This document shows, in pieces, positions 17,784-63,445 of a stretch of 64,000 nucleotides of DNA. Within the stretch, counting starts at the first letter, position 1; each line of letters begins with the position of its first letter. A program made the position numbers and the translations under genes. The notes under the pieces are model-generated. The model saw nothing but the letters and a program-made list of their open reading frames with translations, was not told the DNA's origin and did not search any database. The stretch comes from a virus (Duplodnaviria > Caudoviricetes), in the IMG/VR virus record IMGVR_UViG_3300035686_000003, positions 32,001 to 96,000 of that record, one strand, 5' to 3'.

Positions 17784-17912
17784 GCCGTCAAAACCCACAA
17801 TAGTTTTATTTTATAAGTTCAACAATAGAGGAAACAAAACCCTCTCTTGGGCGTAGAGGGGAAGTGAAAACTTTATTCGGCACATCTATTCTAACCCTTA
17901 AGAAAACCTCTT

Positions 17913-18800
17913 ATGCCTCAACAAGCTATTTGTCTTGATTTGCTCGAATCTACTGGGACTCAGCTTTATGCTGGGTTAGTCCCAGTGGGTTCTTGTACTC
18001 CGACTCCTTATACAGTGGTTCTTGGTGCAGCTGTTGCAGTAGGTGACGAAACCGTTACTGTCACTGCATTGCCAGTTGCAATTCCTAGAGGAAATCGTTT
18101 AGCCTTTTCTACCACTGTAACAATCACCACAAGTGCGTCTGTAACTCAAAACGCTACATCTATTAGTGTTACTGCTTTAGGTTCAGCTGTGCCTTCTGGT
18201 ACCACCCTAAAGTTTGGTAATGTAACCGTTCAAACAACTGCCGCTGCCGCTGCTGGCGCAACAACTCTAGCAATCAATCCTGCACCTGCTGCGATCGCAT
18301 CTGGCGCAACCGCAACGTATCGTCCAAACCCTATTGTTTTAGTTCTAGCTGCTGATGCTGCTGCTGCAACTACCACTCTCTCGATTGATCCGGCTCCTGC
18401 TGCAATTACTAGTGGTCAGACAGCAATTACTTATGCACTCCTTGAATTACTGGGTGGTGAGTCTGCACCGTTCCAAGGTTCCACTGAATTAAACCAGGTT
18501 ACCCTGCTTAACTCTGGTGGTTGGATGTCGAAATCTGCCTCCCAGTCCCAGTACAACTTTCAGTGGACAGGTTACATTCCCGAAAACTCTGCTGCTGCTG
18601 CTGGCTATCGTTTGCTAAAGAATGCTTGGTTTAACAAGCGTTACCTTTATGTCGAGCGCTACATGGCTAATGGCGAGATGTCTGGAGGTACTGTTGTTAT
18701 CACTGCATTTTCTGATCAGGTTCAGGGTGCTGGATATGTACAGTATCAGTGTACGTTTGAAGGTCATGAAGCACCTGTGTACAACTTTGGCGCATCCTAA
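17913..18800 (+). CDS. Major tail (tube) protein with duplicated Ala/Thr-rich inserted beta domains
   Basis: C-terminal tube-like GGW...YNFQWTG...VITAFS...Q.TFEG; repeated AAAGATTLAINPAPAAI units. Confidence 0.75.
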   Translation: MPQQAICLDLLESTGTQLYAGLVPVGSCTPTPYTVVLGAAVAVGDETVTVTALPVAIPRGNRLAFSTTVTITTSASVTQNATSISVTALGSAVPSGTTLKFGNVTVQTTAAAAAGATTLAINPAPAAIASGATATYRPNPIVLVLAADAAAATTTLSIDPAPAAITSGQTAITYALLELLGGESAPFQGSTELNQVTLLNSGGWMSKSASQSQYNFQWTGYIPENSAAAAGYRLLKNAWFNKRYLYVERYMANGEMSGGTVVITAFSDQVQGAGYVQYQCTFEGHEAPVYNFGAS

Positions 18801-53802: not shown

Positions 53803-54045
53803 CTATTGAATTCCTTTTGCTTTAGCGATCACTTTCCTGGCTCTGCTAATGATGCGACCATCGAAATAGTCGCGAGTGTCACCTATAGCTGCTAGTTGGT
53901 CTGTTGTAAGCTCTAGCATCTCTAGTAGCTCTGGTGCGGCAGCGATGAGGTGGGCAGTATGTGAATCCAAGTCTTCCACAATTAAATACCCATGCTCATC
54001 CCTGACATCAAAAAAGCTCCCGATTTTAACAATTTCCCACCTCAT
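53803..54045 (-). CDS. Small phage protein with LIAAAPELLE motif
   Basis: Common phage motif AHLIAAAPELLE...ARKVIAKAKG. Confidence 0.7.
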   Translation of the reverse strand: MRWEIVKIGSFFDVRDEHGYLIVEDLDSHTAHLIAAAPELLEMLELTTDQLAAIGDTRDYFDGRIISRARKVIAKAKGIQ

Positions 54046-55829
54046 AGTTCTCCTCCTTCATACCCTTCAAAGTATTCCAACTTCATCCCCACAGCTGGCA
54101 GTTCCATTAATGCTTGAATTTCCTCCTCATTGCGAGCCAATGGTACCCAATACATGATACTTTTGCTACGAGTTGTCGCGACGTATGTGGCATTCACCTC
54201 TTGGGCGAACATCCACTTCAACATATCCCGTCGCAAATAAGGCAACACATTTGCGCCCACTAGGAAAACATTTGTTGCTTCGTCGCCCTTCGCTGAGTGA
54301 ATCGATGAGAAAATGATGTGCTTGCTACGGTCTTCAGCCTCCACGGGAAAGGCTTGAGCGATCGCTTGCAAAAACTCATCGAGGTTACGGGCATCCTTCC
54401 CCAAGAACTCGTAGCAATATTCTAGACACTTGTAGCTGTCACCTACAGCATCTGCTAGTTGCAGTTGTTCACCATCGATATACTGCTGCACCAAGAAGTC
54501 CCGTTGTTCTGTGAGCTTATCAATGAATTCGCTCCACTTACAATGACGTGCGATAGACTTTGCGAACCCTGACATTTCCTGAGCGATATTGCGCCCACGA
54601 ACAACCCCCTCTTTCCCTTCAAAGAACTTTGTCTCTAAACACAATTTTACTAGTGGTGCAACAAATCTACATATTACTAAGTCGCCCGGTTGTGCTAAGA
54701 GTCTGACTTTATGGGGGTGGAGTTTCTCAATGTGACCCACCTGTGCATCATCACGAGCTTTGATGGCAGGGACGATGAGACTAGCAAAGGCTACGTGCGA
54801 TTGGGGGCAACGCTGGGTTTCTGCAAGGGGGAGGGTGCGAGCATCTGTCATTCTTGCAAAGGTATCCATTGCATCGTTACGGGCACCCATAAAGGAACCC
54901 GTGATAGCCTGTCGAGGATCGCCTACACCAATGAGCCGATATCCAGCAATCTTAAATTTTTTGTAAAGTGATAACATTGCTGGGTTGTTGTCTTGTATTT
55001 CGTCCCCTAGTAGCACCGCCTTCTCAGCTTTAGGCTTTCTTGGGGATAGTCTTAGCTTATGTACCAGCCATAACATATCGGCATAATCGATGACCTTTTC
55101 GTAGACCCCCTGACGATAACAGTCGTCTAGGAGGGCGATGGCACTGTTGATGCCCCACGCCTGCCCACGCTTGCCTCCTGGAAACCGAATCCCATAGTAG
55201 CCACAGGTGAACTCTAGTGCTTCTGGTGTTGCTTCAGCGAGGTTTAGTCTAGCAAAATCAATGAGTTTTTGTAGCTCGCCTTTCCAGCGATCTAGTACCA
55301 GCTCAGCCTTATCGGGTTCTGGTGGGAGTTGTGGAGGGGCAACAGGATAATCCCCCTTGAAGGGTTGCTTGTTATCCAAGCGGTACTTGTAGTCAGCGAT
55401 TGCCGACTTTAGTCTCCGTGTGCCAACTTCTGCTAGCTTTAGTGCTTTTTTGTAGTCAACCTTGGGAGCTTCGCCCCTGAAGTAAGACATCAGCAAGCCA
55501 TAACAACATCCGTGTGCAGTAGAGACGTTGCAGCGTTTTGGTATGCGTTTATCATTTTCTAACTTCTCCTTGACAGAAACGTTATAGGCGAGAATGTTGA
55601 TTTTTGTATTCACTGGAAGTAATCCAACGATTCCGACAATCAGGGTTGTCTTACCCGCACCCGCCACTGCTTCTACTACTAGGTTGTCATCACTATTCTG
55701 AACTTCTTCAAAGACTGCCAGCTGTTGATCATTCCAGGGGATTGCGTTCAGGAATTCTTTCTTCCAGCGCTGAGGTGTCCAAGTGTCTGATTTAACTTTT
55801 GGTGCTTTTGCTTTGCGTTCTTTCGTCAC
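54042..55829 (-). CDS. UvrD/Rep-like superfamily 1 helicase
   Basis: AVAGAGKT, DEIQD, VGDPRQAI, QRCP, SIHSAKGDE, YVATTR. Confidence 0.9.
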   Translation of the reverse strand: MTKERKAKAPKVKSDTWTPQRWKKEFLNAIPWNDQQLAVFEEVQNSDDNLVVEAVAGAGKTTLIVGIVGLLPVNTKINILAYNVSVKEKLENDKRIPKRCNVSTAHGCCYGLLMSYFRGEAPKVDYKKALKLAEVGTRRLKSAIADYKYRLDNKQPFKGDYPVAPPQLPPEPDKAELVLDRWKGELQKLIDFARLNLAEATPEALEFTCGYYGIRFPGGKRGQAWGINSAIALLDDCYRQGVYEKVIDYADMLWLVHKLRLSPRKPKAEKAVLLGDEIQDNNPAMLSLYKKFKIAGYRLIGVGDPRQAITGSFMGARNDAMDTFARMTDARTLPLAETQRCPQSHVAFASLIVPAIKARDDAQVGHIEKLHPHKVRLLAQPGDLVICRFVAPLVKLCLETKFFEGKEGVVRGRNIAQEMSGFAKSIARHCKWSEFIDKLTEQRDFLVQQYIDGEQLQLADAVGDSYKCLEYCYEFLGKDARNLDEFLQAIAQAFPVEAEDRSKHIIFSSIHSAKGDEATNVFLVGANVLPYLRRDMLKWMFAQEVNATYVATTRSKSIMYWVPLARNEEEIQALMELPAVGMKLEYFEGYEGGEL

Positions 55830-57092: not shown

Positions 57093-57806
57093 CTATCGAA
57101 GCTTCCTATTGATCCGTTCGATGAGAGAGAGAAGGAGGGATTCTTCTTCGGCTTGGAGGTCAGCTATCTTCTCGTATTCTTTTTTTGCTGTAGTTTTTCT
57201 TTCTTTTAGAATCTGGTTGAGTGCTTCAGCATTTTGATTTACCCAGTCAAACTCTTCTTGACTTAGATCATATCGGCTCTGGGGAGTGACCCGCTGGTTG
57301 TTGCAATCGTAGATGTTACAGAAGCAAGTTGCCTTTTTTAAATCCGATGGCACCGAAATTTCAATCGTAATTATGTCATTGACTTGTGTTCCTAATCGCG
57401 CTAGAGAAAACAAAAGTCCTCTAGTAAAATTTGTAGCTATACCCTTCTCAAGCATCAATGGCACATCAGTCATCAAATCTAAACGTAGCTTAAGATTTTC
57501 TTCTCCTTCAAAATCCCTGACCCCAGTTTTCAGTAGCTTCACTTTTCCCTTAACTGCTCGTTGTTTGATGAACTCTTTCTGGTCGTCTACAGGGCGATCA
57601 CCATGATGCTTGTAAAACGATCCTGTTTTGTCATCAACATAGATTGCTGTACCACCCGAAGGAGGATCGCAGAAGCCAAGCACTTGCTCGCTATTATTAC
57701 TTTGGCTTTGCTGTTGTGCTAAGGACGCCAACACTTTGATTGCTGCCAAGATTTCTTCGTTTATACTTGTCATTGTTCTATCGCCTCTGTGGTCTACTAC
57801 TCTCAT
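57093..57806 (-). CDS. Hypothetical protein, possibly ssDNA-binding or recombination-associated
   Basis: Beta-rich core next to the exonuclease; likely start MTSINEE. Confidence 0.5.
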   Translation of the reverse strand: MRVVDHRGDRTMTSINEEILAAIKVLASLAQQQSQSNNSEQVLGFCDPPSGGTAIYVDDKTGSFYKHHGDRPVDDQKEFIKQRAVKGKVKLLKTGVRDFEGEENLKLRLDLMTDVPLMLEKGIATNFTRGLLFSLARLGTQVNDIITIEISVPSDLKKATCFCNIYDCNNQRVTPQSRYDLSQEEFDWVNQNAEALNQILKERKTTAKKEYEKIADLQAEEESLLLSLIERINRKLR

Positions 57807-57810
57807 TGTA

Positions 57811-59646
57811 TCACGAGATGAGTTTGAATTTTTTCATCAAATCATTGCGTTGAGTCTTGATTAGAAGGCTTAATATTTGTGCCTTTACTTCAGCTACTCT
57901 TCTAGTTTCCCCTAGTTCTTGCTCAATGAAATCATCAAGATCGATGTGGGAGGTCGTGTTTAGCTTACCAAGAACGATGTCGCTTTGTGACTTGACAGTT
58001 GCCACAGCAAGGTTCAACCCCTGACGTTCAGTGGGCGTTAGAGCGTCTTTAGCTGCTATTGCAGTTCTAGTTTTACTTTGGTCTTGCGGAAGTTCAACAC
58101 TGTCAAGTGTAAACTGAGTTTTCGGATGCCACTTCCCATTAAATTCAACAATTCTGTCAGAAAGATCTCGTTTTGCGTTGCGAGGTGGTTCGTTATTTTT
58201 CAGTTCGCCCCAGTTACGTGCAGTCGCATCGAAGAGGTTTACGTTCCAAGTAACAGAACTGCCTGTAATGGTTGGAATTTCAACTCCAGGAGCGATCGCC
58301 GCAAAGCAAACCCTGAGTTTAGTTAGGTTACTCATCAAAGCAAGCTTGTTGATGTTTCCTTGAGGAGAACCAAACCAAACATACTTTCCACGCTTGTCTC
58401 CACCAGAAACCAATGAAGCACAAAGGTTCATCAATAGTTCCATTAGCTCTTTAGCAGCAGAAGCCAGATCCTCGCTTTCTTTTTTCTTTACGTCTCTCTC
58501 TAGTGACTGAGCCAAGAAATAAAACTCGTCAACAATCAAGAGACAAGGGTTGTCGTCTCTGGCATTCTTGAGGTAGTCCCTGATAACCACAATAAAAGAT
58601 TCGTAGGCATCAGTCTTATCAACGACATCTCCCAGATCAAAGAATTGCGTTTTAGTGCAATGTGCCCAATACTCAGGATCTTCGCCCTGTTTGGCTAGTG
58701 AGCTAATCGAATAAACTTTGTTGAATCTCCCCCTTTGCAATCCAATTTTGCTGGAGATTGCCATGAGCAATGATTTGCCGCATCTTTGTCCACCAATAAA
58801 GACAATTGAGTCAACGCACTCCAAGATGAAATCTACGATGTCTTTAGTTTTTTCGGATCGTTTAGCCATTTCGATTACACTTGGTTGTGAGATTTGTTCC
58901 TGCAAACGGGTGAAGGGTTCTTGAAGCTGAGTCGGGATAGACTCTACATCTGTTTCAACGAATACGGGAGCAGGCTTTGGAATAACAGTTTGCTTTGGTA
59001 GTTGAGGACGCTTTGAACTAGGAAGGGCAATGCTAGCCGTATATTCGTTTGCAAGATCTTCGCAAGCATCAAGAACTTCCTCATATCTCCAGCCTTTGCA
59101 ACGAGCTACGTGGTCAATCGCTTTGGTTAAGGGGTTGTCGCCTTTGTAACTAATCTCTCCATCGACAACTGTTACATCAACTGCCTCCTCAACAGCTTCC
59201 AAGAACAAGTCCGTGCCTGCAATTTTCCAAAGGCTAGCCCAATAGACTGTTGGTGACGAAGAAATAGCTAACCTCACTTGCTCAGAGGTTTTCTCTAGCT
59301 TCATTATTTTTGCCTGTTGAGTTCCCGCTGACCCAAGAAGCCCTATCATTCCGGCTCCAGCAAGCACAGGTATAACAGCTGCTCCAATAACACCTAATGT
59401 GGCACAAGAGCTAATTGCAAGTCCTCCAAGTAGCATTCCGCTTAAGCTCAAGGTAGCATTGGTTCTTTCAACGGCATGGCACTCTTTTTCAAGCTTTTTT
59501 AGTCCATTCAGCAATCTACCCAGAACATCAATGCGGTCTGCAACCGGGGTATCAGGAGTTACATTTGCAACTTGGATTAAGTCGTCAAATGGAGAGTTGA
59601 CTAAGCTTCGAGTTAATGCCAGTTCACCTTTGGATAATCTGTTCAT
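57811..59646 (-). CDS. Membrane-anchored FtsK/HerA-like P-loop ATPase
   Basis: Two N-terminal hydrophobic helices; Walker A GGQRCGKS, Walker B LLIVDE, downstream GSPQ. Confidence 0.7.
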   Translation of the reverse strand: MNRLSKGELALTRSLVNSPFDDLIQVANVTPDTPVADRIDVLGRLLNGLKKLEKECHAVERTNATLSLSGMLLGGLAISSCATLGVIGAAVIPVLAGAGMIGLLGSAGTQQAKIMKLEKTSEQVRLAISSSPTVYWASLWKIAGTDLFLEAVEEAVDVTVVDGEISYKGDNPLTKAIDHVARCKGWRYEEVLDACEDLANEYTASIALPSSKRPQLPKQTVIPKPAPVFVETDVESIPTQLQEPFTRLQEQISQPSVIEMAKRSEKTKDIVDFILECVDSIVFIGGQRCGKSLLMAISSKIGLQRGRFNKVYSISSLAKQGEDPEYWAHCTKTQFFDLGDVVDKTDAYESFIVVIRDYLKNARDDNPCLLIVDEFYFLAQSLERDVKKKESEDLASAAKELMELLMNLCASLVSGGDKRGKYVWFGSPQGNINKLALMSNLTKLRVCFAAIAPGVEIPTITGSSVTWNVNLFDATARNWGELKNNEPPRNAKRDLSDRIVEFNGKWHPKTQFTLDSVELPQDQSKTRTAIAAKDALTPTERQGLNLAVATVKSQSDIVLGKLNTTSHIDLDDFIEQELGETRRVAEVKAQILSLLIKTQRNDLMKKFKLIS

Positions 59647-59681
59647 GATCTTAAGCGGAACGCCTCGTGTAGATTCATTGA

Positions 59682-60440
59682 TTACATTTTGCGAGCAGAG
59701 ATATCGACCGTTGGTGCTTCACGTCTTGGTTCGCCACCACCTCTCGAAGATTGTCCTCCCTTGGCTTGCTGGTGCCCCTCATGGATAGCTTCTGCAATAT
59801 CGCAAGCAGCACTGAGCAAAGAGATCGTAACTTCGGGTAACACTAGTGTCACAATGAGCATCAGCATTCCTTGAAAGCTGAGAGACAGAACAGTTGCCCA
59901 AAACACTAGCTGAATAGCAGTCTCAACCAGGTAGGAAAGATACCTGCCTCTCTCTAACGTTCGATGAGAGAAAGTATGCCAGTTCATCAGACGCTCTGAG
60001 ACTCCTTCTGGCAAATCTTTAGCTTTGGGGTCAATGTTTTTGTTAACGTAAGCTTTGGCAATTTTCTTTTTTACTCTCCAAAGACTAGGGAATAATTGAT
60101 ACACGTTGAAACCAATGCCAGCTAATATTCCTAGTGTTCCAGCACCAATCCCAACAAGGACACCCCCAAGACCCAGAGCTTTTGCAGCCCAAACTCCAAT
60201 CGCACTCCACTGGTAACCAGCAGCAATCATCACTCCCGCAAAAATAGCAGCTGCAACAAACACAACAGCATCAGCAGTTGCAAGTACCTCAAGTAAAGTC
60301 TTAATTGCAAAAGTTGTCAGATTAAAGGTGTTATGGATGAACTCGCTAATCAGGTGGACTATCGATTTGCCAAAACTGAAGATCTTCTGCATGATTGCAG
60401 TAATTTTTTCATTCAGAGACTTGTCGTTTCCTTTGGACAT
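59682..60440 (-). CDS. Multi-pass membrane protein
   Basis: About four hydrophobic segments. Confidence 0.7.
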   Translation of the reverse strand: MSKGNDKSLNEKITAIMQKIFSFGKSIVHLISEFIHNTFNLTTFAIKTLLEVLATADAVVFVAAAIFAGVMIAAGYQWSAIGVWAAKALGLGGVLVGIGAGTLGILAGIGFNVYQLFPSLWRVKKKIAKAYVNKNIDPKAKDLPEGVSERLMNWHTFSHRTLERGRYLSYLVETAIQLVFWATVLSLSFQGMLMLIVTLVLPEVTISLLSAACDIAEAIHEGHQQAKGGQSSRGGGEPRREAPTVDISARKM

Positions 60441-60444
60441 GGCT

Positions 60445-60822
60445 TTACTTTCCTGCTTTGATTAAAGAGATTTGAGCATCAAGTTCTTTTTGGGTAAAAA
60501 GGTGTTGCACTTGTAACTGACTGTTATGATATGCAGCGTGACCAATTTTCCCGCTGGGATCTTTGAAACAAGAAGTTGGACTTCTGCCATCAGCGTGCAG
60601 TTGTATAACGTCACCAATTAACATCGGTCTAACAACTTTTTGACAGTTATTGACGAGCGAATGTCTAGCCACAGTATCTAAAGCTTTACTTCTGGAAACT
60701 TGCGCTCTACTAGATGTAAGGTTTTGTGCGAGCTGTGCCGACATTGATAGAACAGCACAGCCTGCGAGAATGGCAAAACTAATATGTTTGGCGTACAGAG
60801 GAGCAATCTTCATCAGCCCCAC
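60445..60822 (-). CDS. Small single-pass or exported protein
   Basis: N-terminal hydrophobic helix, two Cys in the soluble part. Confidence 0.6.
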   Translation of the reverse strand: MGLMKIAPLYAKHISFAILAGCAVLSMSAQLAQNLTSSRAQVSRSKALDTVARHSLVNNCQKVVRPMLIGDVIQLHADGRSPTSCFKDPSGKIGHAAYHNSQLQVQHLFTQKELDAQISLIKAGK

Positions 60823-61511
60823 ACCTCGTCTAAAAAAGAGTCAGTATCAAACTCAACCTTTGAATCCACCGAAGCCTGTCGCTCAACAGTTACTTGCTGT
60901 CTTCTTGTAGTCCGTTGATTCTCCCGTTCCTTCATCTCCTCAAGGAACTCGTCAACATTGACCTCTTCAACCTTGGTCACCTTCTTGTCAACGATCTTCT
61001 GGATATTAGTCGATGACAGTAAGTTGTCCAACACTTCTTCTTGCTCAGCCATTGCGTCAAGGATTCTGTTTGAGTAATCCTTTTGCCGCTGTTGCCAAGC
61101 AGCAACGAAAGTTTTCTCTTGTACTTCCGCTAGCAAATTTGCCCGTTGTTGTTCCCGGTTTGCAATGCTTGTTGCGATCGCGAATAACACTCTGTCAGAG
61201 AATCCAATGTTCTGAGCGGTCAACACCGACTTGGCACTTTTTACTAGCTCAGTTGTGTCTTGCAAGACTAATGCTTCCGTTTGTTCACTACAGTCGCTAG
61301 GGGTCTGTGTTGGTGTAACTGGTGCGGTGCCAGCAAGTTCCTTAGTTTGCTTGACTGCGAATCCCAATGCTTCAAGGGATTCAAATGCTGAAACAACGTC
61401 TTCTTCAGATATGTTATCGCTGTTTTCTGTGTACCCCATAGCTTTTAGAGCAGCTGTCGCATTTTCTTGGGGGTAGCAATCTAAATCTTTTAATGCTTCT
61501 GTAAAGTTCAT
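60813..61511 (-). CDS. Acidic coiled-coil protein
   Basis: 232-aa ORF heading the membrane/ATPase run. Confidence 0.65.
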   Translation of the reverse strand: MNFTEALKDLDCYPQENATAALKAMGYTENSDNISEEDVVSAFESLEALGFAVKQTKELAGTAPVTPTQTPSDCSEQTEALVLQDTTELVKSAKSVLTAQNIGFSDRVLFAIATSIANREQQRANLLAEVQEKTFVAAWQQRQKDYSNRILDAMAEQEEVLDNLLSSTNIQKIVDKKVTKVEEVNVDEFLEEMKERENQRTTRRQQVTVERQASVDSKVEFDTDSFLDEVWG

Positions 61512-61682
61512 GGTCTTCGTTACTTGCGCTTAGTTTTCTGTGTCTTACAACACTATAACACGACGATTAGCAATTGTCGGCTTTTCGACAACAAATATTC
61601 ATTACTATTGCGCTATGAAACGAAGAATATGGATTAGAAATTTTGATGGTAGAAAATACTTAGAGCCAGAGCTACTCCAAGC

Positions 61683-62066
61683 CTATGAGAATAGCCATGA
61701 CTCTACTACTTCTCTTTTCAATGCGAGAATCTTCTTTTTCCCTGACTCATCGGTTCCTCCAATCCAATCGCGAATATCTGCGTACTCACAAATGCTATGT
61801 ACTTCTTGGCACCAGGCAATCATCATAAGGAAAAATTTCTGGTAGAAGTCCAGCTTCTTCCGATTCTTCCTGTTTCCCCAATAAAGGATACGCACCAAAG
61901 AAATCGAACTATCAACAATCTCTCGTTCCCAGTTGTAGATCGTCCGTTCGGTGACGGACAGAACTTTAGCCCATTCTTCACGAGAGGAAAGGGTTTTTAG
62001 ATCGTCCTTGCTTGCCCCAAACATATTCAGCAAGGTACTTAGGTAATATGCCTCTTGAGTCTCCAT
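61683..62066 (-). CDS. Helix-turn-helix DNA-binding protein
   Basis: SREEWAKVLSVTERTIYNWE; ATG 62066 preferred because the longer track ORF runs through the repeat array. Confidence 0.65.
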   Translation of the reverse strand: METQEAYYLSTLLNMFGASKDDLKTLSSREEWAKVLSVTERTIYNWEREIVDSSISLVRILYWGNRKNRKKLDFYQKFFLMMIAWCQEVHSICEYADIRDWIGGTDESGKKKILALKREVVESWLFS

Positions 62067-62159
62067 GTTTTCTACTAATATTAATTCCTTGTAAAGTTTA
62101 ACACTAATTTGTATTTTCAGCCAATTGTTATCACAAAGGTTTGTAGATTTGTTTGTCCG

Positions 62160-62392
62160 AATCCGGAAACGACCCAGAAACGAGTCAGAACCCACCCAGA
62201 AAGGACTCGGAAAGTGCCTAATGATAGTGGTTCGCAATAGTGGACTAAAATTTTGCGAATGAAACTATAGAAAACGAGTGATTTACTTGAGCTGCATCTG
62301 TGAAACCCTTATGGCAGTAAGGTGTTTTATTTGAGGGGTATGTGAATCCCAGATTCTTTGTCGCAATAGTAAATCCAGAAAGGACTCGGAAA
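62160..62392 (+). repeat. Five 11-bp-period 8-mer repeats plus an 18-bp direct repeat
   Basis: AATCCGGA/GACCCAGA/GAGTCAGA/CACCCAGA/GACTCGGA at 62160, 62171, 62182, 62193, 62204; CCAGAAAGGACTCGGAAA at 62196 and 62375. Confidence 0.7.
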
Positions 62393-62580
62393 ATCGGTCT
62401 TATATTGACGTATTGTGGGTCAGAAATCGGAACTTCCGGATTTGCTCACACCGTTTCCGGATTTTGCTGGTAGTATTTATTCCTATGAGTTTGAAAGTTG
62501 GAAGCAGTTCCTTACTTCTTCATTGTTCTTGACTCTGTTATCACAGAAGATGTTCCCGACAATGAGGTAAGCTCGACAAC

Positions 62581-62610
62581 TTGACAACTCGACCGTCCAT
62601 CTACTAAGCT
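62581..62610 (+). promoter_or_regulatory. Putative promoter of the rightward small-gene operon
   Basis: TTGACA-N18-TAAGCT. Confidence 0.45.
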
Positions 62611-62636
62611 GGTGAAATAAACCGTTTCTGGACAAA

Positions 62637-62808: not shown

Positions 62809-63018
62809 ATGTTCTGGAATCCCAACGGATGCAACAATCGCACATCACATAACAATGGTGAGCCAGTGTGGAACGAACCGACACTACGAAGATTTTGGCG
62901 ATACTGCGAGATTAAAGGCTTAGACTCAAAGGATGCTAGGTCGGTACAGAAGTTTGTTGAAGAAGAACTGTATCCTCCTATAGGCACGATTAACTCTCAG
63001 GGGGTGCCAAACTTCTGA
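62809..63018 (+). CDS. Hypothetical protein
   Basis: GGAGG RBS; coupled to its neighbours. Confidence 0.55.
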   Translation: MFWNPNGCNNRTSHNNGEPVWNEPTLRRFWRYCEIKGLDSKDARSVQKFVEEELYPPIGTINSQGVPNF

Positions 63019-63290
63019 TGGCTACAGAAGAATTAACCATTGAACACGTAAGGCGATTTGCGCCATACCAATTGTTCCAGTGTGTATCTCCCGATGGGAG
63101 TGAGTATCTGTTGGAGTTGCAGGAGATGGACGTTGATGCTGCCATTGAAGCAGATGTGTTTCATATCAAAAACCTTAACAGCTCTGATCCTGTTGCAGTA
63201 ATGGACTTTGCTAACCTAAAGCTGACATTGCAGACCATCAAAACTTATGTACCCTGTTGGACAAACACCTGGGATAGATTAGTGCATTAA
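63018..63290 (+). CDS. Hypothetical protein
   Basis: 90 aa, TGATG overlap. Confidence 0.6.
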   Translation: MATEELTIEHVRRFAPYQLFQCVSPDGSEYLLELQEMDVDAAIEADVFHIKNLNSSDPVAVMDFANLKLTLQTIKTYVPCWTNTWDRLVH

Positions 63291-63298
63291 AGGAAACC

Positions 63299-63445
63299 AT
63301 GAAGATAATCACTGCTGGGCTTTTCATCGTTACGATTCTTGCTACAGCTCAGTTGCTCACTGACTTCACGCCTATTTATGCAGACGCCCAACCGGAACCC
63401 ACAGAATCTTCGCCCCCACGAGGAGGTGGACGAAGAGATATTTAA
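63299..63445 (+). CDS. 48-aa PatX/PatS-like secreted peptide, absent from the ORF track
   Basis: MKIITAGLFIVTILATAQLLTDFTPIYADAQPEPTESSPPRGGGRRDI; AGGA RBS; terminator follows. Confidence 0.7.
   Translation: MKIITAGLFIVTILATAQLLTDFTPIYADAQPEPTESSPPRGGGRRDI

Follow-up and report, generated by a model that had tools for sequence, protein, structure and literature searches.

A five-gene phage cassette built around a membrane-anchored ATPase, likely of a new family in the FtsK-HerA superfamily, with relatives on cyanobacterial plasmids

Why does a tailed phage that encodes its own large terminase (TerL) also carry a membrane-anchored P-loop ATPase at the head of its early operon? The question is raised by a stretch of 64,000 nucleotides (nt) from a virus of the Caudoviricetes (the window; bases 32001 to 96000 of the 147.7-kb IMG/VR virus record IMGVR_UViG_3300035686_000003), in which a cassette of five genes runs leftward between positions 57811 and 62066. 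An original prediction, made from the letters alone, had read these genes as a DNA-translocation operon resembling the Tra/Spd genes of Streptomyces plasmids, which might spread phage DNA along a cyanobacterial filament or partition a plasmid prophage. Here, we report that the cassette recurs in phage-like loci, that relatives of its ATPase (ATPase611) occur on plasmids of cyanobacteria, and that this ATPase is likely to represent a new family within the FtsK-HerA superfamily at the level of its modelled fold. We see about an even chance that the cassette is a membrane-bound translocation motor of a new family, with the element's own double-stranded DNA (dsDNA) as its most likely substrate.

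All five open reading frames (ORFs) were present in the predicted order and tight spacing, with a 10-nt overlap and then 4-nt and 35-nt gaps at the junctions from cc232 to the ATPase. The genes, and the parts of the ATPase, are as follows (window coordinates; lengths in amino acids [aa]).

57811-59646, minus strand: ATPase611, membrane-anchored P-loop ATPase, 611 aa (motifs, hydropathy, structure matches)
59002-59646, minus strand: N-terminal helical domain of the ATPase, residues 1-215 (separate match in the exhaustive search, profile positions 1-245)
58087-58854, minus strand: ATPase core, residues 265-520 (Walker A, Walker B, SGGxKRG, SPQ)
58771-58794, minus strand: Walker A motif GGQRCGKS, residues 285-292 (motif check)
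58525-58542, minus strand: Walker B motif LLIVDE, residues 369-374 (motif check)
58387-58407, minus strand: conserved SGGxKRG of the ATPase (alignment)
58360-58368, minus strand: SPQ of the ATPase, residues 427-429 (motif check)
57814-58077, minus strand: C-terminal helical domain of the ATPase, residues 524-611 (confidently modelled as helices)
59682-60440, minus strand: tm252, four-segment membrane protein with Gly-rich helices and a basic loop (Kyte-Doolittle)
60445-60822, minus strand: sp125, signal-anchored 125-aa protein, possibly a lipoprotein, with a predicted periplasmic domain of ~100 residues (Kyte-Doolittle and alignment)
60813-61511, minus strand: cc232, acidic 232-aa protein, probably helical (no family match)
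61683-62066, minus strand: HTH127, small helix-turn-helix (HTH) protein and first gene of the set, 127 aa from ATG

The sequence features on which the prediction had relied were for the most part borne out. Both nucleotide-binding motifs, GGQRCGKS and LLIVDE, lie at residues 285-292 and 369-374; K291 is invariant and D373 nearly invariant in an alignment of 83 relatives, and E374 is invariant in a 119-sequence alignment. The SPQ tripeptide is present as claimed but is not invariant among the seven closest relatives, some of which have SPKG; a conserved KR (residues 418-419) precedes the sensor strand. The two-helix anchor is consistent with Kyte-Doolittle hydropathy, since a Gly/Ala-rich hydrophobic stretch of ~45 residues near the N terminus (approximately residues 64-108, ~59323-59457), with basic residues on its flanks, is long enough for a predicted membrane hairpin. 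Hydropathy likewise gave one N-terminal segment in sp125 and four segments in tm252, as expected from the single-pass and roughly four-pass proteins described before. The C-terminal domain of the ATPase shares 38% identity with the C terminus of a Nostoc flagelliforme plasmid protein and is recognisable by eye in the homologue from plasmid pCC7120alpha; sequence searches against the PDB returned nothing significant for it, and it may possibly serve as a substrate- or DNA-binding adaptor.

Relatives of the ATPase were sought at several depths. A word-indexed search returned six (36 to 52% identity), and an exhaustive profile search returned 247 cluster representatives, in which profile positions 1-245 and ~290-515 (the ATPase core) often matched separately. 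The full-length protein modelled poorly (predicted local distance difference test [pLDDT], 59.6; best Foldseek match, E 0.02), and this model was replaced by one of residues 255-611 built from the 119-sequence alignment (mean pLDDT, 92.5). Foldseek with this domain model placed B204 and TcpA on top; upon re-comparison of the candidates, 24 FtsK-HerA entries led, including FtsK on dsDNA (12.2), followed by Rho (11.6), and a structure search of the Atlas listed FtsK_SpoIIIE clusters. The nearest structural neighbours were FtsK, HerA, VirB4, VirD4/TcpA, EccC, and A32/B204-type ATPases, with a RecA/ASCE-type P-loop core. The 50 best structural matches included no terminase, and an hhalign comparison with TerL of the same phage gave 0.2%. 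The check proposed with the original prediction, FtsK/TraB/HerA versus packaging ATPase, was made at the level of the modelled fold, which groups with FtsK/HerA/type IV secretion system (T4SS)-type ATPases and not with terminases.

A reading as the packaging ATPase was considered and rejected, because the phage has TerL elsewhere in its genome (genome positions 114896-117934, phrog_19299, 4.3e-38) and portal, protease, and capsid genes in the window.

Judged by sequence, the ATPase belongs to no named family, and scans of Pfam, PHROGs, NCBIfam, and PADLOC with the five cassette proteins gave no match above any cut-off. The literature yielded no description of the family or of the cassette. FtsK, TraB, TcpA, VirD4, and VirB4 have been treated as related ATPase families, and a cyanobacterial conjugation type, MPF-C (mating-pair formation), has been described for which any experimental knowledge was lacking (Guglielmini et al. 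2013, PMC3548315). The present family is likely a further, unannotated branch at the level of these five, with partners of its own.

Those partners differ in how widely they occur. HTH127 is taken to start at its ATG; an upstream TTG start (62237) is unlikely because relatives are 127 to 155 aa long. Its stretch WAKVLSVTERTIYNWERE gave weak PHROG and PADLOC matches below the cut-off. Homologues of HTH127 in the same position, and homologues of cc232, were found in loci L002, L005, L006, L008, L009, L010, and L025, and none of either was detected on plasmids carrying ATPase relatives, so far marking HTH127 and cc232 as apparent phage-side partners of the ATPase. In sp125, Cys22 is invariant in an LAGC lipobox-like context, as are Cys60 and Cys85 within the C-terminal ~100 residues; a canonical lipobox occurs in just three of six aligned phage-side sequences, and the protein may be a periplasmic domain tethered by a signal anchor or a lipid. 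For tm252, the predicted topology has both termini and the basic loop in the cytoplasm, with a conserved Pro-Glu in the last helix; it matched no family, and the Protein Atlas gave only sub-threshold leads (0.82, SseF/SseG). Of the ATPase partners, tm252 is the one present in the largest number of loci, including L008, L009, L025, L026, and L027. Identity between the window and its closest relatives was 68 to 69% for tm252, 61 to 63% for sp125, 49 to 52% for the ATPase, 36 to 37% for HTH127, and 29 to 32% for cc232. A predicted complex of the ATPase N-terminal domain with tm252 (score, 0.15; mark, 0.32) was used neither for nor against an interaction.

The cassette was met again in about ten phage-like loci from metagenomes. 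The full five-gene set, in the same order, was found in L002, L003, and L004 (one phage in three samples), L005, L006, L008, L009, and L025, and the contig encoding family member P0010 has the same run of gene sizes. In two further loci (L026 and L027), tm252 and the ATPase are retained and a gene of 136 to 144 aa takes the position of sp125. As read from gene order and alignments across independent loci, this conservation is far beyond chance, and the cassette keeps its place at the start of the early/replication operon even in phages whose ATPases are only ~25% identical. One locus, L010, encodes an ATPase without the N-terminal anchor and lacks the genes for sp125 and tm252, while those for HTH127 and cc232 stay; no observation here argues more strongly than this combined loss for joint action of the anchor with sp125 and tm252, and for a role of HTH127 and cc232 with the ATPase itself. 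Among viral proteins, the best structural match was to gp140 of Nodularia phage vB_NspS-kac65v161, a remote family member reached by iterated search and Foldseek alone; the profile of family alignment A3 did not find it in that phage genome. In 50,697 phage records, tblastn found no match to the ATPase or to tm252.

Member P0010 (712 aa) has an extra C-terminal domain of ~90 residues (residues 605-700), which also occurs in proteins of Cylindrospermopsis, Leptolyngbya, Nostoc (YongM), and Anabaena (Elbi) phages.

Distant relatives of the ATPase were detected by tblastn on plasmids of Fischerella, Scytonema, and Nostoc. On Fischerella NIES-4106 plasmid5 (24.5 kb), genes of 132, 260, and 586 aa stand in cassette order and match sp125 (40% identity), tm252 (37%; E, 2.5e-35), and the ATPase (22%; E, 1.5e-16); ParM-like, ParA, and integrase genes are present on the same plasmid. 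Its typing is non-mobilizable, as is that of Scytonema plasmid6 (17 kb), which also carries a relative. With the Fischerella plasmid5 ATPase as the query, 41 plasmids matched, some over the C-terminal ~70 residues alone: Nostoc, 24; Tolypothrix, 7; Aulosira, Microchaete, and Trichormus, 2 each; and Fischerella, Calothrix, Scytonema, and Leptolyngbya, 1 each. They include pCC7120alpha of strain PCC 7120 (WP_010999624.1) and are typed as non-mobilizable (14), mobilizable (13), or conjugative (14). The more distant member P0065 matches plasmids of Leptolyngbya and Moorena, and one ATPase representative comes from a Phormidesmis metagenome-assembled genome. The homologues on pCC7120alpha and Fischerella plasmid5 (BAZ71340.1) are true family members with the same anchor-ATPase-C-terminal layout, and differ in their Walker A motif (GxPGSGKG versus GGQRCGKS in the phage). 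All plasmid homologues are annotated as hypothetical proteins, and no study of them was found in the literature.

Every named host of the 43 plasmids with ATPase relatives is a filamentous cyanobacterium (Nostocales, Leptolyngbya, Moorena). A control query with a Uma2 protein, from a family common in cyanobacteria, likewise returned mainly filamentous genera, so this pattern may reflect sampling and, as drawn from sequence matches, is suggestive only. Two scans of a species-genome collection, run with narrow patterns, found no relative.

The last ~70 residues of the Fischerella plasmid5 ATPase are also shared with Nostoc punctiforme pNPUN04 protein WP_012413369.1 (L021:4384-6207). Its RefSeq label is 'type IV secretory system conjugative DNA transfer family protein', yet neither Pfam nor NCBIfam gives a match above a cut-off; the protein may be over-annotated, or the two proteins may have an adaptor domain in common at their C termini.

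What might such a cassette do? As we infer it, the ATPase would form a ring at the cytoplasmic membrane and, driven by ATP, move a polymer (most likely dsDNA of the element itself) at or through this membrane; tm252 and sp125 would carry the apparatus on into the membrane and the periplasm, and HTH127, cc232, and the C-terminal domain of the ATPase would act as substrate or regulatory adaptors. The direction of transport, like the biological role (transfer, entry, or exclusion), is part of this inference. The layout of an N-terminal hairpin, a RecA-type core, and a small C-terminal helical domain matches that of FtsK/SpoIIIE, Streptomyces TraB, VirD4, TcpA, and EccC. A periplasmic partner with conserved cysteines argues for a job that spans the envelope, and a function on the element's own DNA would fit the use of the cassette by both phages and plasmids.

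Among known systems, TraB/Tra with Spd proteins of Streptomyces (pIJ101, pSVH1) offers a similar architecture: a membrane-associated FtsK-type ATPase, small membrane proteins, and a divergent regulator, on elements without a relaxase, in hosts that on both sides grow as filaments. Gene order differs, however, and the phage side has a Gram-negative-type envelope and a periplasmic partner. Of the TraB/Spd analogy drawn in the original prediction, the architecture and the N-terminal anchor hold up; homology does not, since hhalign detected no sequence relationship between the phage proteins and Tra, SpdB, or KilB. We regard the analogy as a reasonable working model. TcpA of Clostridium perfringens pCW3 (PDB 6o1x) is 10 to 11% identical to the ATPase, has unrelated partner proteins, and acts with relaxase TcpM and a VirB4-like ATPase, whereas the phage has neither a relaxase nor VirB4. 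Type IV coupling proteins (VirD4/TraG/TrwB) share N-terminal membrane helices followed by a nucleotide-binding domain; unlike them, the ATPase stands in a phage genome without relaxase or VirB4 and matches no curated coupling-protein profile in Pfam or NCBIfam. VirB4/TrwK (PDB 4ag5, 8rtd) differs in that the ATPase leaves PF03135 unmatched, is much smaller, has an anchor of its own, and lacks the other T4SS parts. Unlike HerA, STIV2 B204, and the PRD1 P9 class, it belongs to a tailed phage with a portal, an HK97-type capsid, and its own TerL; it has no NurA partner and no match to DUF87. The claim that the window holds no relaxase or T4SS genes extends to the whole 147.7-kb record for the relaxase, VirB4, and FtsK families tested, with zero matches to PF03432, PF01076, PF03135, or PF01580. 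Some plasmid relatives of the ATPase do co-occur with relaxases, and L026 has a relaxase nearby.

Several results weigh against a DNA motor of the FtsK-HerA superfamily. The Z margin of the FtsK-HerA matches over generic RecA-class ATPases is just 1 to 3 units, which makes the clade assignment likely rather than certain. The structural match to EccC/EssC, which move proteins, is as good as that to FtsK and HerA, so the fold does not fix the substrate. PF01580 (FtsK_SpoIIIE) is unmatched not only by the ATPase and the genome but also by the 83 relatives, whose weak Pfam matches include STAND-type and AAA_22 models, and hhalign of family alignment A3 gave 0.8% to pIJ101 Tra (a single-sequence template, which limits sensitivity) and 2.5% to TcpA; with these and the variable SPQ, membership ends at the superfamily. 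Neither the operon nor the DNA 3' of it showed a clt-like repeat array, the repeats being confined to the divergent control region described below.

Other readings of the cassette have to be set against the translocation motor. The one nearest to the original prediction holds that it works by analogy with Streptomyces TraB/Spd and passes phage or plasmid dsDNA to neighbouring cells of a filament (or to touching filaments) without a relaxase, a T4SS, or virions. The resemblance of fold and anchored layout to TraB and coupling proteins, the absence from the phage of the relaxase and VirB4 families tested, the non-mobilizable typing of Fischerella plasmid5 and Scytonema plasmid6, the periplasmic partner, and the filamentous hosts (43 of 43 plasmids, joined by the Phormidesmis genome and the Nodularia phage) all point this way. 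We nevertheless consider filament spread unlikely: homology to TraB, SpdB, and KilB is missing, no clt-like repeats were seen in or beside the operon, 27 of the 41 plasmids are typed mobilizable or conjugative, a relaxase lies near the L026 cassette, the host distribution may be a matter of sampling, and a PatX-like neighbour (below) is not conserved. Septal junctions of Anabaena, moreover, are known to pass small molecules only. Action on incoming DNA, whether by an early motor that pulls in the rest of the 148-kb genome or by an entry or superinfection exclusion device, would suit a cassette that heads the early operon beside a control region with operator-like repeats and faces the membrane and periplasm, and phages and plasmids alike would gain from exclusion. 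It too seems improbable, as we know of no FtsK-type import or exclusion motor, the exclusion proteins known to us need no ATPase, and the genome ends cannot be placed relative to the operon in a linear record without terminal repeats.

A cytoplasmic housekeeping role, in which replicating DNA of the element is tethered or partitioned at the membrane (as a replication anchor or for plasmid-prophage partition), would explain why the cassette lies directly upstream of genes for an exonuclease, a UvrD-like helicase, a DnaD-like initiator, DnaB, and Pol III alpha, and why on plasmids it follows ParM-like genes. Such a role would have no need of a periplasmic partner, though, the plasmids already have ParM or ParA systems, FtsK-HerA ATPases are translocases and not partition ATPases, and a tyrosine integrase is absent from the phage (whose genome was not scanned for ParA/ParB families); we think it very unlikely. 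The equal match to EccC/EssC raises the prospect of a type VII-like exporter of phage or plasmid proteins to the periplasm or beyond, to which we give little credence: no WXG100-like substrate gene is linked, there is one ATPase domain and not three, an HTH protein is a conserved partner, and to our knowledge type VII systems have not been found in cyanobacteria. An accessory conflict system (abortive infection or anti-plasmid), in which a membrane NTPase sensor would act with membrane effectors, has no PADLOC match and no recognisable effector domain (nuclease, NADase) to recommend it; the fixed early-operon position across phages at ~25% ATPase identity looks like a core function, and we would be surprised if the cassette proved to be such a system.

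Membrane-anchored FtsK-HerA ATPases drive chromosome segregation, Streptomyces conjugation, type IV coupling, and type VII secretion; the cassette adds an unannotated family with two new membrane partners. The family is common to large cyanobacterial siphoviruses, at the head of the early operon, and to plasmids of Nostoc, Fischerella, Scytonema, Tolypothrix, Leptolyngbya, and Moorena, and its homologue on pCC7120alpha, in model strain PCC 7120, is a tractable handle both on the movement of relaxase-less cyanobacterial plasmids and on the action of tailed phages at the membrane of a newly infected host. Should the translocation motor indeed carry DNA between cells, TraB-style conjugation would have arisen a second time, independently, in a multicellular bacterium, and the motor would be a Gram-negative counterpart of Streptomyces TraB/Spd.

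The phage itself, taken to be a large virus of filamentous cyanobacteria, is of the siphovirus type, with a portal, a head protease, and an HK97-type major head protein encoded in the window, and a lambda-J-like tail tip protein, an endolysin, and the large terminase among its other genes. The record is rated complete by CheckV and is linear, without terminal repeats; the sole sequencing run found to hold the stretch is a biocrust metagenome, with no RNA run among the holders. A canonical Walker A motif occurs in just four phage ORFs of at least 150 aa. The long early operon runs leftward from ~62.1 kb, and after the five cassette genes at its head come those for a 237-aa protein, a phrog_298 exonuclease, the UvrD-like helicase, the DnaD-like initiator, DnaB, MazG, ThyX, a class II ribonucleotide reductase, and Pol III alpha.

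Upstream of HTH127, the cassette is separated from a rightward operon of small genes by a region rich in repeats.

62067-62636, no strand: divergent control region between the cassette and the rightward small-gene operon (repeats)

An exact 18-nt direct repeat, CCAGAAAGGACTCGGAAA, occurs there at 62196 and 62375, and a perfect 12-nt inverted repeat, AATCCGGAAACG / CGTTTCCGGATT, at 62160 and 62452, along with more repeats that contain TCCGGA. Judging from their sequence and position, these repeats are likely candidate operators for the flanking HTH and ribbon-helix-helix regulators. A promoter scan of the region did no better than chance. In the rightward operon, a 48-aa ORF (63299-63445) has a signal-peptide-like N terminus and ends in ...PRGGGRRDI. 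The PatS/PatX motif is RG[ST]GR, and the ORF has RGGGR. The original prediction had joined this PatX-like operon and the cassette into one multicellularity module; that proposal is not supported, as the ORF has no counterpart in eight related loci, nor do they encode an RG[STG]GR peptide in any frame. The sole divergently placed gene that is conserved, and then in the closest relatives alone, is one of 90 aa (63018-63290).

Immediately 3' of the ATPase lies the gene for the 237-aa protein (p237; window positions 57093-57806), which is kept in L002, L005, and L007 on the opposite strand and at a length of 189 to 192 aa, an apparent local inversion relative to the cassette; since its homologue lies on the other strand in relatives, p237 was left out of the gene set. 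The UvrD-like helicase of a related phage (L002:16872-20042; 1056 aa) contains an intein (PF14890) and aligns in two blocks with the 595-aa helicase of the window (54042-55829), which is accordingly intein-free. TerL (L014:8896-11934) is 1012 aa long, with terminase profiles at residues 61-483 and 556-883 and endonuclease profiles on residues 162-372, within the first terminase-matching part, a pattern that suggests an inserted intein or homing endonuclease. Defence-like genes also occur in these genomes: a SLATT-like gene and a TIR-domain gene form a defence-like pair ~5 kb downstream of the cassette in a distant relative (L009:14600-16034), and, outside the window, a 256-aa protein of the phage (genome positions 17850-18620; L016:4850-5620) matches PHROG 6287, annotated as BstA abortive infection system, replication inhibitor (4.8e-37), a defence-type gene.

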